In this document: positions 25,502 to 58,376 of the stretch, piece by piece | Layout of the letters: every line of letters starts with the position of its first letter | Position numbering within the stretch: position 1 is the stretch's first letter | Source: Octopus vulgaris | Taxonomy: Eukaryota | Direction: 5' to 3' | NCBI GenBank assembly: GCA_951406725.2 | Contig: OX597823.1 | Span: 81,344,001 to 81,408,000 of the forward strand | Length of the DNA stretch: 64,000 bases | Translations under genes and position numbers: made by a program | The notes under the pieces: generated by a model | What the model saw: the letters and a program-made list of their open reading frames with translations, nothing else | Told to the model about the DNA's origin: nothing | Database searches by the model: none

Positions 25502-25909
25502 CGCACACGGGTGTGTATGTTCTACCTGAGAGGTTCCTGCTGGCACGGAAAGGAAGGTGCAGGCTGCCGCTTTGCACATCGGGGACCCTGCCACAGAGAC
25601 ACGAGGCAGATGGACAAACCATCAACACAAAGAAAAGGGATGGACTACGCACCACCTGCCCCAAAGCGGAGGTACGCAGATGTTGTGCGCGCCACAAACA
25701 GCCAACATGATGTTGTCGAAAGAGCAGCTGCTGAGCAACAATCTTTTTTGTGCATGGCACAAAAGATCGTACAGCAGCTGACCTGGCTTCATCAAACCCA
25801 AGCCCGCAGGTGGGACTACCCACTATATACCAGACCACCACAGCAAACAGACACAGGATGGACACCGCCGGCAACAACAACGTACACCTCACCTCGATAC
25901 TCCTACTGA
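25502..25909 (+). CDS. C-terminal part of LINE ORF1 with a CCCH-type zinc-finger-like motif
   Basis: Open frame [26 protein letters not shown]...RRYADVV..., stop at 25907-25909; overlaps the ORF2 start in another frame; 5' end cut by the TA tract. Confidence 0.7.
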
Positions 25910-28626
25910 ACATCAGAGGACTGCAAACACTCAGTAACAGGACAAAGATCCCGTTCCTGAGAGACTTTGTTGCATGCAATCAAGCCTTATGCATAGCACT
26001 TACAGAAACGCACCTGAAACCGGACATAGCAGATGCGGAGTTACACATACCACAGTATGCTGTACTACGGACCGACAGGAAAGAAAGGAGTCATGGAGGT
26101 GTTGCTATGTACATCCGTGAGGACCTCACACCCCAGGTCCTCTTGTCATACTCAAACTCGGTGTGTGACACACTAATTGTACATATTAGGCAACTTGATG
26201 TAGTTGTGTGTGCTACATATCGCCCTCCAGATGCCCCAAGCCATGTGGGCAAGTTCGAAGACTGCCTTATAAAAATAGAAGAAATTCTAACCACATTAGA
26301 ACAACACATAGGTGTGCTTCTTATGGGAGACTTCAATCTGCCCAATGTCAGATGGCCCGAGGGCCTTTCTCTCCCAGGAATGACAAGATGTGAACGAGGA
26401 CAGGCGAGGTCCCTCCTGAACCTCACCAACACCCTGTACATGGAGCAGGTAATACTCCAACCAACCAGGGCAGGTAACACACTGGATCTCTGCTTCACAA
26501 ATGACATGGATCTCATCCATAATGTGAAAGTGACACCGACACTACTCTCGGATCACAACATGGTAGAGCTGACCATGTATGGGCCAAAAGAGAGCACGGA
26601 CATGCAGCCTACAAGAAACCCTCAAAATCTTTCCAGCTTGAACTACCATAAGGCAAACTGGAAACAAATTGAGAAAGAGATCCTCAAACAAAACTGGCCT
26701 GAATGTCTCTCCTCGCCAGACATCGACGTGAAACTTCAACAATTCATGTCTGTAATGCAAGCCATATGCTACAAATGTGTCCCAGAGAGAAAGGCCACTG
26801 TACACAAGAACAAAATCCCCAGAGAGAGGAAAATTTTAATGAGACGGCGTACGAAATTTTCAAATCGCCTAAACAAACAGATTGAAAGCAGTGAAAAGTC
26901 CCGCCTAAAAATAAAACTGTTGGAAATCGAAAAATGTCTGCAACTCTCCCATGAAAAAGAAAGAGCAGACAAAGAAGCCTGGGCTATAGAAAACATAAAA
27001 TCTAACCCCAGAGCTTTCTACAGGTATGCTAAAGAAACAGCTACAGTGCACTGTAGAATAGGGCCACTCCTCGAAAAGGATGGCACACTTACAGGAAAAC
27101 CAATGAGGGTAAGTGAAATACTGAATGAGCAATTCAAGAGTGTTTTCACTCCACCCCTTGGGCATCTCCAAATCACCAATCCAACTGACTTTTTTACCAC
27201 TGCAGATATAAAATCAGAGGCGGCGACGATAGATTACATCGATATAAATGAAGACGATGTAACCAAGGCTATAGATGAAATGAAAAGAGACTCAGCTACT
27301 GGCCCCGATGGATTCCCGGCAATCCTCCTAAAAGCATGTAAGAGAGTCCTAGCAAGACCACTGCAGTTCCTCTTTCAGAGCTTCCTTGCAGCTGGCAAAC
27401 TTCCAGGAAAACTGAAGGAAGGTAAAATATGCCCCATTCATAAAGGAGGTAGCAGAGCGGAAGCCAAGAACTATAGACCTATCTCTCTGACCTCACACAT
27501 CAGCAAGGTCATGGAACGAATAGTCAGAAGGAAGCTGATCACCTTCCTTGAAGAGAATGACTTGCTGCCCGACACCCAACATGGTTTCCGACCAGGGAGA
27601 AGCTGTTTAACTCAGCTCCTACAACACTATGACTGGGTGCTGAAACGGCTGCTCAACCACTCAAATGTGGAAGTGATATATCTCGACTTTGCAAAGGCCT
27701 TTGATAAAGTCGATCATGGAATGATATGTCACAAACTGCGTGATCTCAACATAGTTGGAAAACTGGGAGAATGGCTTCATGACTTTCTGAAGGATAGAAG
27801 TCAGGTGGTAGTAGCCAATGGGGCCACCTCCATTAACACACAAATAGTGAGCGGTGTTCCGCAGGGCACTGTTCTGGGACCACTACTGTTCATAATGGCC
27901 CTCTCAGACATGCCCTCAGCCACGCAGAGAGCCACGATCACAAGTTATGCAGATGATACAAAAGTTTCACAGGCAATACAGAACCCTGAGGACACTAAAC
28001 ACCTGCAATGTGAGCTAGACGAAATATACAAGTGGGCTGAAAAGAATAGCATGCAGTTCAATGCTGGAAAGTTTCAAGCTTTATACTATCAGCATGCAAA
28101 ACTGAATGCAATACCCAATGAATACACTGGACCCGGAGGGATTGCAATCCCAGAGGCACAATCAGTGCGTGACCTGGGTATTCACATGAGTGATGACGCG
28201 ACCTTTCATGTACATGTTGCTAAACTGACAATGAAATGTAGACGGCTGGCTGGCTGGATTCTTAGAACCTTTAGAACAAGAGAACAAGAAACCATGATGG
28301 TCCTCTGGAAGACACTTGTCCTAAGCCACTTTGACTATTGCTCTCAGCTATGGTCACCATCCAGTGTCAAGTTGATCACAGAACTTGAGGCGATCCAACG
28401 AAGCTACACAAAGAAGATAGCCTCTATGCAGAATGTAAGCTACTGGGAAAGACTCAAGAGATTAAAATTATATTCCCTGGAGCGTAGGCGGGAAAGATAT
28501 GCCATAATATACATCTGGAAGATCCTGGAGGGAAGTGTCCTGAACTTTGGCATCGAGAGTTACGCAAATGCCAGAACTGGGCGCCACTGCGTGGTGCCTA
28601 GGACTAAACCTGCCATCAAGATGTAG
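25858..28626 (+). CDS. LINE ORF2: APE endonuclease plus reverse transcriptase (frame open from 25750; probable start ATG 25858)
   Basis: APE motifs LNIRGL, LTETHL, GGVAMY, YRPP, MGDFN, LDLCF, SDHN; RT motifs [44 protein letters not shown]. Confidence 0.95.
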
Positions 28627-28846
28627 GACAAGATACTGTGATAGCCTGGGCTTCCGAGGCCCACAGCTCTTCAATATCCTCCCGAAGAACCTGAGAGACC
28701 TGCATGGGGTGGATACAGATGTCTTTAAAATGAAGCTGGATCTCTTCCTGTCAGGTGTCCCAGATGAACCAACTTCACGGCAGGAGGGGCAGATGAGGGC
28801 AGCTGCATCGAACTCTCTCATGCATATAGCCACAGTCATAAGCTGA
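28603..28846 (+). pseudogene. Frameshifted C-terminal continuation of ORF2
   Basis: Alternate frame [23 protein letters not shown]...VPDEP...AAASNSL aligns with the in-frame paralog at 41784-42065. Confidence 0.85.
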
Positions 28847-28870
28847 AAGCCAATCCATGAAGTGAAATAG

Positions 28871-29382
<512 letters not shown>

Positions 29383-29399
29383 ATTTATTATATAGAAGG

Positions 29400-29446
29400 A
29401 GCTTCTACAGGACTAACTGTTTCATTCAAGAGAAATCCAGGAAGCT
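29400..29446 (-). ncRNA. Degenerate family-A hammerhead (core CTGGA, 2-nt deletion)
   Basis: Reverse complement agcttc-ctgga-tttctcttgaat-gaaa-cagttagtcctg-ta-gaagct. Confidence 0.6.
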
Positions 29447-29835
29447 ATTTAACAAGAATTGTATTAGCATTTATAATTTAGGCAGGTGGAGTGGTGGTGG
29501 GGGACTTTTTGGGGGTAGGCATAGCGCAAAATATCATACTCAGGGGAGTGGTCAAGGAGTCAGTGGTAAGTTAGATGAAAGAATAGATAAATAAAATATA
29601 TAAAAAAATATAAAAATAAAATAAAAAAATAAAAAAATAAAAAAATAAAAAAATATATATAAAAAATATATATATATATATATAAAATATATATATATAA
29701 ATATATAAAAAAATATAAAAAATATATATATAAAAAAAGGGGGATAGAGTTATAGGTAAATAAGGAGATTCCCACTTATACCTATACACACATGTATACG
29801 TATCTACACACACATACGCACATACACATATATCT

Positions 29836-29894
<59 letters not shown>

Positions 29895-30365
29895 CATACC
29901 TACACATACACACATACATACATACAAATATACATATACATATATATATATATACAATCCAATACAGGCCCATTCCCTAATTTTAATTTTATTATCTTCA
30001 TTTATTACTTTTGTTATCTTTGATCGCTAAGGCTAAGAATCCTGGCAATAGCTGCTTGTCCATTTGTCTGTCTACTAGAAGGCAAGTACTCATTCCCGCA
30101 CGCACACTCATTAGCACGTACATTCACCCATTCGTACACTCATACACATACACGTACGCACGCGTTATATTCATACATACAAACATCTACATACGTTCAC
30201 GTATATACACATACGTACTCGTACCTACAGATTCGTGTCTACACTTTAGGAGGCTAGTCTATACATATACACCAATAAATATACATATATATATATATAT
30301 ACATATATACCCGCATATACATACACACACACACATATATATATACTCCTACATACAGATACATA

Positions 30366-30405
<40 letters not shown>

Positions 30406-30718
30406 TACATATATATATACATACATACACATACATACACATACACACATACACACACATACATACACATATATATACATACACAAACATATATACACAC
30501 ACATATATATACATACACACATACACACATACATACGTATACATACGTATTTTTATTCTTTTATTTTATCTTTTATATTTTTTTATTTTTTATTTTTTTA
30601 TTTTTTTATTACCTTGACCACTCCCCCAAGTATGATATTTTGCGCTATGCCTACCCCCAAAAAGTCCCCCACCACCACTCCTCTAAATGTATAAATGCTA
30701 ATACAATTCTTGTTAAAT

Positions 30719-30769
30719 AGCTTCCTGAAGATTTCTCTTGAATGAAACAGTACTAGTCCTGTAGAAGCT
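30719..30769 (+). ncRNA. Type I hammerhead ribozyme fold (family A)
   Basis: AGCTTC-CTGAAGA-t TTC tctt GAA t-GAAA-CAG tactagtc CTG-TA-GAAGCT; stems I, II and III and the core can be drawn; predicted cleavage after GUA (30763). Confidence 0.8.
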
Positions 30770-30849
30770 CCTTCTATATAATAAATTAATTTTACTCTGC
30801 TATGTATTGAGTACCTTACTTACTGTGGTTAACCCCGAATCAACCCGGG

Positions 30850-32260
<1,411 letters not shown>

Positions 32261-40339: not shown

Positions 40340-41203
40340 ATACACACACACACATATATTTATATATATATACATATATATGACGGGTTTCTTTCAGTTT
40401 CCATCTACCAAATCCACTCACAAGACTTTGGTTGGCCTGAGGCTATAGTAGAAGACACTAGTCCAAAGTGCCATGCAGTGGGACTGAACCCGGAACCATG
40501 TGGTTGGGAAGCAAGCTTCTAACCACACAGCCACTCCTTTTATCATTTATCTTTTACTTATTTCAGTCATTAGACTGCTGGGGCACTGCCTTGAAGAATT
40601 TTTAGTTGAATGAATCAACCCCAGTGCCTTTTTTTATAGCCTGGTAAATTATTCTATCGGTCTCTTTTGCCAAACTGCTAAGTTACAGGGATATAAACAC
40701 ACCATCATTGGTTGTCAAGTGGTGGTGGGGACAAACACAGACACAAAGACACACACATACACATACACTCACACACACAATGGGCTTCTTTTCAGTTTCC
40801 GTCTACCAAATCCACTCACAAGGCTAAAGCTGTAGCAGAAGATACTTGCCCAAGGTGCCATGCAATTAGACTGAATCCAGAATGATGTGGTTGGGAAGCA
40901 AGCTTTTTAACATACAGCCACACCAACACCTATATATATATATATAAAGAAGCCCGTCGTATATATGTATATAGATGTATGTGTGTGTGTGTTTGTGTGT
41001 CTGCGTTTGTCCCCCCAACATCGCTTGACAACCGATGCTGGTGTGTTTGCATTCTTGTAACCTAGCAGTTCGGCAAAAGAGACCGATAGAATAAGTACTA
41101 GGCTCACAAAGATTAAGTCCTGGGGTCAATTTGCTCGACTAAAGGCAGTGCTCCAGCATGGCCACAGTCAAATGACTGAGACAAGTAAATAGAGTAAAGA
41201 GTA
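40340..41203. mobile_element. Cluster of three S1 SINE copies (-, -, +)
   Basis: 40340-40540 (-), 40550-40930 (-), 40948-41203 (+). Confidence 0.8.
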
Positions 41204-41234
41204 TATATATATATATATTTTATTTTATAGAAGG

Positions 41235-41285
41235 AGCTTGTACAGGACTAGAACTGTTTCATTCAGATGAAATCTTCAGGAAGCT
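41235..41285 (-). ncRNA. Second family-A hammerhead, head-to-head with the + strand copy
   Basis: Reverse complement agcttc-ctgaaga-tttcatctgaat-gaaa-cagttctagtcctg-ta-caagct (one stem I mismatch). Confidence 0.7.
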
Positions 41286-41332
41286 TCCTGAAGATTTCGT
41301 CTGAATGAAACAGTTCTAGTCCTGTAGAAGCT
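41282..41332 (+). ncRNA. Type I hammerhead ribozyme fold (family A)
   Basis: AGCTTC-CTGAAGA-tTTCgtctGAAt-GAAA-CAGttctagtcCTG-TA-GAAGCT; differs from the 30719 copy only in the loops. Confidence 0.8.
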
Positions 41333-41414
41333 CCTTCTATAAAATAAATTACTTTACTCTGCTATGTATTGAGTATCTTATTTACTGTGGTTAACCCTGA
41401 CTCAACCCGGGACC

Positions 41415-42657
<1,243 letters not shown>

Positions 42658-54242: not shown

Positions 54243-54374
54243 AATACAGATATGCATACATACGCATACAAACACACTCACACACTTACACATACACTCA
54301 CATACACACATCTGTGTGTGTATATATATACATACACACACACATATATACATACACACACACATGCACATATA

Positions 54375-55265
54375 TGTATTCCCAGGTCATGCACTGATTT
54401 AGGTTCTGGGATTGTAACCCCCACTCTCCTCCAGCCAGTGTATCCTGTAAGTTTTCGCTCAGTTTTGGGTGGTGGTAGCACAGGGATTGGAATTACCCAA
54501 CATTAAACTGCATATTATTGTCCTTAGCCTATCTGTAATTTGTGTCCAAGTCCTGCTGCAGGTTTGCAATATCACTAGGGTTTAGTATTTTCTGTGAGAC
54601 TGTTGTATTTTCTGTGAGACCTTGCATAGCTAGCAAGGGTGGCTATCTAGTCATCTAAGGGCATTTCTGAGAGGCCCACTATGAAAAGCAGTGGTCCCAA
54701 GACAGTGCCCTGTGGAATGCCATTCACTATTTGTGTTTCCTTTGAGGTGGCTCCATTGGCCACTACTGCATGACTTCTGTCTTTCAGAAAGTCATGTAAC
54801 CACTCTCCAAGTTTTCCAGTTTTATCAAAATCGTGCAGTTTGTGGCATATCATACCATGATCACCTTTATCAAAAGCTTTTGTAAAGTCAAGGTATATGT
54901 CGTCCACATTTGAGTTTTCGAGTAACTGCTTCAACATCCAGTCATAGTGCTGTAGGAGCTGTGTCAGGCAGCTCCTACCTGGTTGAAAACCATGCTTTAT
55001 ATCAATCATCAAGTCATTTTCATTAAGGAATTTGATTAGTTTCCGTCTGACTATTCGTTCCATGACTTTGCTGATGTGTGAAGTCAGAGAGGTAAGCCTA
55101 TAATTTTTGGCATCTGTTCTGCTTCCTCCTTTATGGATTGGGCATATTATTCCCTCCTTCAGTTTGCTTGGCAGCTTGCCATTTGTAAGAAAACTCTGGA
55201 AGAGAATCTGTAGTGGTTTCACCAGGGTATGTTTGCACAATTAGAGGAGGGTTGCTGGGAAACCA
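54375..55265 (-). mobile_element. Decayed internal RT fragment of the same CR1/L2-group LINE family
   Basis: 197-aa ORF highly similar to the ORF2 above ([51 protein letters not shown]); YADD region disrupted. Confidence 0.9.
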
Positions 55266-55342: not shown

Positions 55343-55881
55343 GTTGGAGCACTCTTTTATAGGTATGCCATATGTGTAATATAACAACACAGATAATAAC
55401 GTGTGTGTGGGGAAGGTGTATAACTGTAATATGTTCCATTATTTCGTATTGCAAAAAGTATTACTTAATAAGTATTATTTTACATTCATTCTATATTTAT
55501 ATCGGTAGAAGATCAGTTTTCTTTTTTCATTGCCTACCTTCACAATAGAAACCATAGATCACTTTTATTTTACTCCCTGCATACCTTCAGAATAGAAACC
55601 GTAACTTAGATTTCACTCCAGTATTTTTCCTTTGTATATTTTTCATATGCCACATCAGAATTTATGAGGTCAGCTATCATTTTCCTATTTCACTTCAGTA
55701 TGTTTGTACAACTTTTCATTTGAAAATACCCATTTTCTCTAAACATAGGAAGAAACAAATTTGGTTGGGCACTCTTCTGTAGGCATGCCATATGTTTAAT
55801 ATAACGACAGATGCATAATAACGTGTGTGTGTGTGTGTGTGTGTGTATATAACTGTAATAACCTCTATTACTTTATATTGC
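55343..55881 (+). repeat. ~110-bp direct repeat pair upstream of the Helitron fragment
   Basis: gcactctt..taggYatgccatatgt.taatataac..ataataacgtgtgtgtg..tataactgtaata..tattgc at ~55345 and ~55766. Confidence 0.65.
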
Positions 55882-55884
55882 TAT

Positions 55885-56595
55885 AAGAAAAAGAGGAGCT
55901 GGCATTGAGGGTCATCCAAATATAAAATTATTTGACCCGACAATCAGAAGAGTTGACTCTGTGCATCCAAGTTACTATGGATGTTTCTTTCTGAGGCTGC
56001 TTCTTCATGAGATAAAAGGACCAGCTTCCTTCTCCTTCCTAAGAATGATTGATGGTCAAACTGTTCCTACTTATAGAGAAGCTTGTTTAACCTTAAATTT
56101 GCTAGAAAATGGCAATCAGTGGGATAGAACAATGACTGAGGCTTCAGTGTTACACACACCTATTTCTTTGAGAGATCCTTTTACTATTCTTCTGAATTGT
56201 GAAGTAAGTAATCCATTAGCGCTGTGGAACAAATATAAGAATGATTTATCTGAAGACTACAAATATCAAGCACAATTAAGATTCCTTGAGAGGGAAATAG
56301 CATTCAACGATGACAGATATAATTCTGCATTGGTTGATATTGAAGATTACATTGTCTCAATGGGAGGGAAGGAGCTCAGTAAGTTTGGTTTATCTGAAAC
56401 TCATCAAAATGAGGTGAATAATTTAATCATGGAAGCTTTGTGAGAAACCTCATATGATATTGATTCATTAACAAGATTCCTTGAAGAAAATGTCCCAAAA
56501 CTTTTGCAAGACCAACTTTCATATACAACAATCATTGTCAAGTGACACATAAGGGAAGAGTATTATATTTTTTAGATGCACTAGGAGGATCTGCA
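55885..56595 (+). mobile_element. Helitron RepHel fragment (Rep-helicase linker up to Walker A)
   Basis: VHPS..CFFLRLLLHEIKGPASFSFLRMIDG..PTYREAC..LNLLE..NQW, ending IFFLDALGG (cf. FLDAPGGTGKT). Confidence 0.85.
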
Positions 56596-57482: not shown

Positions 57483-58376
57483 CAAAGAGTGCGATGGGTA
57501 AATTGTCGCCATTTTATATCTTTAATTTTGCACATACATATTGTTTGTTTTTGATTTTGTCGACTACACAGTATCGTAGGGTAAGTTGAGCACCGTCTGT
57601 GAGAAAAACAGCACCACGATGCAATTTACTCTACCAGAAATTTGCAAATGACTTGCTGTGCTGCTTGGCATTTGCACTGGAAGCTCCAATACAAACATTT
57701 CACAGTGTTTGAGTGTCAATCTGAGGACATGGACTGAGAGTGATAAAAATCAAACATCCAGTCAACATCATGGTGTTGAGAGTGACCACTAGTGATGGCA
57801 ACGTTATGCCTCCATTCATCTTCCGACACAGCCTCACACTCAACACAGAGGCCTACATCATGTGCCTAGAGGCAATAGTGCTGCCCAGGGTCAAGAGGGT
57901 GGCTGGTGGAAGACACTGTGTCTGGCAACAGGACTCAGCACAATACCACACAAACAGGAGAACACAATCATGGCTCTCAGACAATTTCTGTGACAACATC
58001 ACCCCTAACATCTGGCCACCTAACTCCCCAGACTGCTATCCCCTTAATTATTATATGTGGGGTACAGTTAAATGAGAGATCAACAGAACTCCTTGTAATA
58101 CTAAAGATGAACTGAAGGCAAGGATTATGGCAGCATTCACCAACTTAAACAAGGAGACCATCCAGAAGAGTTGCAGGAGATTCTGAATCTGTCTGAAGGC
58201 CATGGTTGAAGCCAATGGTGATTTTATTGAATAAATTTACTGTTTAGTATTTCAAGATATTTTTATGTAATTTTGGTAAATATAAACGATCATGATGATA
58301 TCTGTTAAAATGGGATGTCAGTGTTATTTTCATTTTTGCTTAATTTAGATGACAGTTTATTCACCACACTCTGTAT
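57483..58376 (+). mobile_element. Internally deleted DD37D (maT-like) Tc1/mariner transposon
   Basis: WQQDSA...37 aa...WPPNSPDCYPLNYYMWG (third D mutated to N); degenerate TIRs agagtgcgatgggtaaattgtc / gacagtttattcaccacactct. Confidence 0.8.

Follow-up and report, generated by a model that had tools for sequence, protein, structure and literature searches.

Animal Penelope-like elements (PLEs) are known to bear hammerhead ribozymes at their ends, and the truncated copies frequently run into the thousands. In the pseudo-LTRs of EN+ PLEs of animals (Cervera and de la Pena 2014, PMC4209133), these hammerheads have type I topology, a U after A9 that fits CUGANGAH, a G10.1-C11.1 pair, a long helix II, a helix I of 4-5 bp and a helix III of 0-2 bp, and they occur mostly as solo truncated copies or as close pairs on opposite strands. 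Small palindromic helix III regions have been published for PLE hammerheads, and a long helix III is found in those of fungi and protists (PMC4209133). PLE insertions themselves have an inverted 5'-truncated copy beside the direct one, a tail at one end and a bias towards (TA)n (PMC8557442), with overlaps, palindromes and spacers of captured DNA at the head-to-head junctions (PMC3846280). The Poseidon protein of Anolis cuts both strands of AT-rich DNA, and reverse transcription begins, mostly on uncleaved RNA, at a pair of internal sites in an AC-rich stem-loop, with the tail lying between them (PMC11167929). In Octopus vulgaris PLEs are reported to have been active recently, and 30 such Penelope families are listed (PMC13282606).

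A 64,000-nucleotide stretch of O. vulgaris DNA, referred to here as the window, contains two loci made of end pieces of a high-copy repeat. We consider it probable that this repeat is a PLE pseudo-LTR whose hammerhead is predicted to cleave itself weakly, as a dimer or with the aid of a protein. The cephalopod hammerhead family is apparently previously unreported: searches of the accessible literature found no account of an octopus hammerhead, the family may already stand in repeat databases such as Repbase and Dfam or in paper supplements, and the accessible text of the O. vulgaris repeat paper contains neither 'hammerhead' nor 'ribozyme' (0 occurrences; PMC13282606). The additions to a known kind of element are modest, namely a cephalopod family and an uncommon combination in which helix II is 3 bp and closed by U-U while helix III is 3 bp and has a palindromic 8-nt loop.

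The hammerhead motif and its copies

An intact type I hammerhead layout lies at 30719..30769 (+) in locus A (copy A), and the stems, core, loops and triplet named by the original prediction are all in place there:

30719-24/30764-69, plus strand: stem I, 6 bp
30725-31, plus strand: core C3-A9
30732 and 30743, plus strand: U10.1 opposite U11.1, a U-U instead of G10.1-C11.1
Stem II, plus strand: 3 bp with a 4-nt loop
30744-47, plus strand: G12-A15.1
Stem III, plus strand: 3 bp and the 15.1-16.1 pair, with an 8-nt loop containing CTAG
30761-63, plus strand: GUA triplet, with the predicted cut after 30763

The letters C3-U4-G5-A6-N7-G8-A9, G12-A13-A14-A15.1 and U16.1-H17 are in register, as in other type I hammerheads, and three helices of 6, 3 and 3+1 bp are able to form, of which helix I is open-ended. 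GUA is a natural cleavage triplet (PMC1636495). The U-U at 30732/30743, which had also been read correctly, departs from the typical G10.1-C11.1 pair, and published exceptions to that pair exist. Copy B, at 41282..41332 (+) in locus B, has the same intact layout, with the predicted cut after 41326. Of its 51 positions, four differ from copy A; loop II accounts for three of them and loop III for the fourth, and the claim that it varies solely in its loops is borne out. BLASTN finds two extra copies on the minus strand: 29446-29400 in locus A lacks 2 nt in the core and another 2 nt in loop III, and 41285-41235 in locus B has a broken first pair of stem I. Two of the four copies in the window are intact, and three of the four keep all core letters.

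A strict descriptor, composed after the motif had been seen, matches at two places in the window versus none in 200 local dinucleotide shuffles; with a looser descriptor, the best score equals that of the motif in 4 of 300 shuffles. The motif is real and is improbable as a product of chance.

With the animal PLE hammerheads of PMC4209133 the octopus motif shares the type I topology, the U after A9, a palindromic helix III region, a U-rich flank upstream and an AU-rich flank downstream, and the occurrence mainly as solo truncated copies and as close opposite-strand pairs. It differs in its U-U and 3-bp helix II, where those have G10.1-C11.1 and a long helix II, in a helix III of 3 bp with an 8-nt loop and a helix I of 6 bp, both longer than theirs, and in the lack of a linked ORF. 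Nor does it have the form of the minimal PLE hammerhead (min-HHR), in which helix III is absent or 1-2 bp long and a long helix II is opened by a G-C after an extra base. The axolotl HHR_Amex2, an active animal hammerhead, likewise has a U-U at the base of helix II, a strengthened helix III and a predicted dependence on dimers, but it forms 350-bp head-to-tail arrays, its helix III is 2 bp with a tetraloop, and it has some loop 1-loop 2 contact (PMC7229834). Cleavage and circles have been demonstrated for HHR_Amex2 (PMC7229834); for the octopus motif self-cleavage is a prediction.

Other hammerhead motifs were also seen. A second, unrelated type I candidate is present as a single copy in the window at 13978-13934 (-), with a 6-bp stem I, an intact core, a 5-bp stem II closed by U-A, a palindromic helix III and GUC; 1 of 300 shuffles equals its score, the motif can be enclosed by a distal helix of 8-9 bp, and it has no Rfam match. 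Hammerhead pattern scans turned up 33 loci in metagenomes, 1 in viruses and 22 in prokaryotes, none of which (0 of 56) matches the octopus element by BLASTN; two of the 56 hold a complete hammerhead from an unrelated element, and one is a 5'-cut piece of that element. Locus L021 (1450-1580), as well as L025 and L029, carries a repeat with a type I hammerhead and a U-U-closed stem II downstream of eukaryote-like ORFs, and we read the head of this repeat, which precedes the hammerhead, as tRNA-like from its A- and B-box-like motifs.

Two head-to-head loci in TA arrays

Each locus consists of a direct and an inverted arm of the same repeat. These inverted partners, and the tail that distinguishes the direct arms, are features that identify the element and had gone unmentioned in the original prediction:

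30550..30850, plus strand: direct arm of locus A, with a T-rich tract (30550-30611), a conserved body, the hammerhead, AATAAA and the tail; likely a pseudo-LTR
29380..29635, minus strand: inverted arm of locus A, with the damaged hammerhead 29446-29400 and no tail
29636..30549, unstranded: spacer of locus A, ~0.9 kb, microsatellite-rich, no domain found
30787..30850, plus strand: tail of locus A, 64 nt, of a kind present on direct arms only
41282..41417, plus strand: direct arm of locus B, beginning at the first base of stem I, with the hammerhead at 41282-41332
41218..41285, minus strand: inverted arm of locus B, with a damaged stem I pair and no tail
28871..29394, unstranded: (TA)n array left of locus A
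30850..32258, unstranded: (TA)n array right of locus A
41201..41217, unstranded: short (TA)n run left of locus B
41418..41784, unstranded: (TA)n array right of locus B

Within locus A, the arms are 85% alike over 262 columns, and the spacer between them may be captured host DNA or element interior. At locus B the arms overlap by a 4-bp palindrome (41282-41285) that opens stem I. An assembly artefact is rejected as the source of the locus B palindrome, given that 2 hammerhead positions distinguish the arms and that both arms stop at breakpoints seen across the family. In both loci the inverted arm stops at the equivalent of 30786, right after AATAAA, and is followed by (TA)n. Both direct tails, of which that of locus B is 5 nt longer, also run into (TA)n, and all four outer ends of the two loci abut such repeats. 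The end of the tail is predicted to form a 4-bp stem with an AC-rich loop (30834-30849), 87 nt past the predicted cut. No ATG-started frame passes through the tail; both ATGs hit stops within 5 codons.

This organization matches that of PLE insertions. The hammerhead lies inside a terminal repeat, an inverted 5'-truncated copy is joined head-to-head at both of the two loci, both have a one-sided tail of the kind left by two RT start sites, and the target is AT-rich microsatellite, here (TA)n. Head-to-head arms, an overlap or palindrome at the junction, a tail on one arm, an AT or TA target and an AC-rich stem-loop at the 3' end are shared with the insertions of Adineta Pen2a/Pen3a (PMC3846280), with Naiad/Neptune-type elements (PMC8557442) and with Poseidon (PMC11167929). 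The tail of 64 nt, lacking an ATG-started through-frame, differs from the 30-40 nt of these published insertions, and the RT start of the anole PLE lies 85-92 nt past its cut (calculated from PMC11167929) versus 87 nt here. The original prediction of a type I hammerhead layout in non-coding, TA-embedded, multi-copy elements tied to PLEs is thus supported.

The repeat is likely a PLE-type terminal repeat with a presumed autonomous partner. No Penelope RT or GIY-YIG domain was found among 260 filtered frames of at least 55 aa and 5 others in the window; the RTs of the window are all of LINE type, and the inserts are too short to contain a PLE ORF. A peptide search with the tail covered 1783 candidates with none at E up to 10, a weak search in which 11 of 40 residues are repeat. 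The accessible octopus Naiad supplement gave 0 matches to six element motifs, in a text where line breaks or cut cells could mask one.

The same loci could be stray solo copies of a non-LTR retrozyme, a short non-coding unit in head-to-tail arrays whose monomers are cut by the hammerhead and circularised. The repeat is non-coding and of high copy number, its helix III exceeds the minimal PLE form, its U-U pair is that of the axolotl retrozyme hammerhead, and retrozymes have been proposed to derive from PLE pseudo-LTRs, so that the two readings overlap (bioRxiv 10.64898/2026.07.22.740005). However, none of the four window copies is head-to-tail, as the 150-450-bp units of retrozyme arrays are, and no tandem array extends over the element in the window, no joint looping back within 244 nt is among those listed for the sequencing runs described below, and the tail and inverted arms are the marks of PLE insertion. 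We regard a retrozyme as an improbable source of these loci.

For a PLE, published work suggests the following course of events. A Penelope RT/GIY-YIG protein encoded elsewhere would nick both strands of a TA array, cDNA synthesis would be primed inside the element RNA at two places, which here would be 30786 and about 30850, and the two cDNAs would join at their far ends, at locus B via the 4-bp palindrome at the start of stem I. Since the inserts extend across the cut site, the template RNA would have been uncleaved. The hammerhead would likely have its role in the source element, where unit-length RNA would be cut from longer transcripts, and not in the window copies.

Among the other elements of the window, a LINE at 25502-28870 (+) lies within TA arrays and has an intact 963-codon ORF for AP endonuclease and RT. 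The closest named relative of the LINE protein comes from Argonauta hians, which points to an octopod host, as does a repeat landscape like that of octopus genomes. A short frame upstream of the LINE ORF gives weak CCCH zinc-finger matches. LINE-related fragments are present at 54372-55265 (-) and about 41785-42060 (+). A single TA array separates the intact LINE from locus A behind it, and locus B is followed by a fragment of a related LINE, as might be seen with a SINE-like element mobilised by these neighbouring APE-RT LINEs, themselves found in TA arrays. Against this, BLASTN finds no match between LINE and element, and the LINE fragment beside locus B is just 70% alike to the intact copy. 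Nor are a pair of fixed 3' ends and a head-to-head arrangement of arms known as marks of LINEs or SINEs. A SINE-like origin is thus extremely unlikely, and the proximity to LINEs is put down to the shared TA target. Elsewhere in the window there is a DDE transposase fragment at 57725-58072 (+) and a 193-codon frame at 55862-56440 (+), without a Pfam match, which we take to resemble a piece of a Helitron helicase.

Predicted folding and cleavage

The original prediction described a complete fold with a real stem III, as opposed to the minimal PLE form. The layout stands, but completeness and the reality of stem III were overstated. The hammerhead fold is predicted to account for at most 2.4% of the 37 C ensemble (2.4% for copy A and 0.13% for copy B), its share is not improved at 18-25 C, and the folding energies of the two copies are not unusual (z -0.17 and -0.66). 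Stem III alone is marginal at a predicted -0.2 kcal/mol and its loop is palindromic; stem II, of just 3 bp, is predicted to be able to slip onto G12-A15.1. No distal stem I is predicted. A further hairpin is predicted to compete for the 3' side of the motif:

30761..30777, plus strand: predicted competing hairpin covering the cleavage site and the 3' strand of stem I

This hairpin would bury the cut site after ~10 further bases had been transcribed, and the predicted stem I pairing falls from 1.0 at 51 nt to at most 0.05 at 132 nt of transcript. For a swapped dimer joined through the loop III palindrome the predicted energies are -27.0 and -23.4 kcal/mol, where two monomers reach -17.0 and -19.6; this gain of 4-10 kcal/mol is non-specific in that duplexing gains energy for any hairpin.

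The motif shares its core letters and three-way junction with the hammerheads of Rfam clan CL00010 (Hammerhead_HH9 and relatives). Local covariance-model scans nevertheless gave no match to these models at E up to 10, which is how the check by Rfam proposed with the original prediction came out, and no hammerhead is among the best 150 of 397 Rfam matches for the whole window. The control locus L021, a U-U hammerhead with canonical tertiary motifs, matches Hammerhead_HH9 with E 4.7e-7, below the gathering score. With no Hammerhead_HH9 match, in contrast to L021, and no predicted distal stem I, the octopus motif apparently lacks the canonical loop 1-loop 2 motif of animal hammerheads, though other contacts may exist; such a lack would speak further against a retrozyme. 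Among the four window copies, no stem pair shows a two-sided change.

These predictions bear on whether the motif is a dead or never-active look-alike, with its letters kept by the youth of the family or as a promoter or RT-binding site and its RNA non-cleaving. Such a reading fits a hammerhead fold that is a minor state, masked by the downstream hairpin, and the lack of Rfam support; it also fits the finding that contigs at least 95% alike to the window copy form the majority, so that little variation is sampled, and the report that mutants of the anole PLE hammerhead left insertion in vitro unaffected (PMC11167929). Opposed to it are the core letters, three helices and UH triplet that are in register beyond chance, changes in the intact copies that avoid core and stems, and a place within the repeat that is that of PLE hammerheads. 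The question is one of weak versus zero activity. We judge a look-alike to be highly unlikely.

For activity with a U-U at the base of helix II there is a precedent, in that the HHR_Amex2 monomer was 22% cleaved in 1 h and its dimer did much better (PMC7229834). A point against activity is that of the Xenopus retrozyme dimers tested only 1 of 9 cleaved (2026 preprint, bioRxiv 10.64898/2026.07.22.740005). We put the chance of detectable self-cleavage of the octopus motif, in some form, slightly above even. The window copies themselves are probably inert. Read-through RNA of locus B is predicted to form one long hairpin of -113.5 kcal/mol, within which the ribozyme would be unable to fold.

The repeat family and a candidate transcript start

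The repeat is represented in public sequencing data, with at least half of 20 sampled words present in 20 of the 24 runs listed (9 studies, 3 organism codes). Contigs placed on 30607-30850 from four runs number 2062, 1590, 1128 and 35; the 1128-2062 contigs per DNA-labelled run are a sign of high copy and not a copy number, and the 'RNA' status of the fourth run, X5, is a guess. The family reaches upstream of 30612 in all four. TA-rich loose ends behind 30786 are seen in 12, 12, 14 and 2 contigs of X1, X3, X14 and X5, respectively, and since they occur in all four runs the short end is family-wide.

Variation within the family is low, with 1643 of the 2062 contigs of X1 at least 95% alike to the window copy. 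Five substituted places are listed over 244 nt, of which two are in the hammerhead, at N7 and in loop III. These are the sole listed substitutions within the 51 nt in the three DNA-labelled runs, and both are free positions; in the three large runs the N7 variant makes up 11-19% of summed depth. If the loop II change of copy B is added, three of three events fall on free positions, of which the 51 nt contain 13 (p about 0.02); this count excludes the two inverted arms. Contigs lose rare variants and break at variants, so that a short variant list overstates conservation, and variants that spare core and stems lend modest support to conservation of the hammerhead. The loop III allele of copy A, a 6-nt palindrome at 30752, is at 8-14% of summed depth in X1, X3 and X14 and at 82% in X5, and sites 30717 and 30699 show a similar skew between the large runs and X5; the X5-skewed allele may mark an expressed subfamily.

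A candidate promoter lies just upstream of the hammerhead:

30690..30696, plus strand: TATA-box-like heptamer, 29 nt upstream of the first base of stem I

This spacing, which was spotted after the fact, has a chance of about 0.004 for a 6-nt slot. TATA boxes stand around -30 from the transcription start. Both arms of locus B begin at the first base of stem I, and among the contig pieces listed (32 of 4903) there are six with at least 20 unlike upstream letters, all starting at 30719-30727 and four of them at 30719-30721. Starts at stem I fit a transcription start and equally a homology boundary among related families. Among published PLEs, Penelope of D. virilis has an internal promoter without a TATA box (PMC2377424), and the pseudo-LTRs of Adineta have a putative one (PMC3846280).

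We can further imagine, as a speculative extension that we doubt, that a hammerhead placed at transcript +1 acts as a timed switch, able to fold only during the few nucleotides of synthesis that precede the downstream hairpin or as a dimer via the loop III palindrome, and shedding a 45-nt capped leader. The stubs would then be cDNAs primed internally at both tail sites that ran to the uncut 5' end of RNA escaping cutting, and copies would for that reason start exactly at stem I. If true, this would give the Penelope hammerhead a defined job in self-decapping and in sorting RNA between translation and insertion, and the 4-nt and 6-nt loop palindromes would be a natural variant pair for testing it. 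Being short, young and present in high copy, with sharply defined ends and a candidate start where the ribozyme begins, the repeat offers a test case for the role of PLE hammerheads, which PMC8557442 and PMC11167929 leave as a question.

We also considered a 91-nt intron (30630-30720) whose end would meet the 5' edge of stem I, an arrangement found in Penelope of Drosophila virilis. There is a donor-like site at 30630 and an AG at 30719-20, but hexamers of the donor-like kind turn up 0.85 times per 100 nt, and no spliced joint for 30630-30720 is among the joints listed for the four runs; the intron is unsupported.

Among the variants of the family, we note a ~30-nt palindromic insertion in X1 directly after stem I (30771-30791; 1 and 7 contigs), which on the folding model would disrupt the competing hairpin at 30761-30777.
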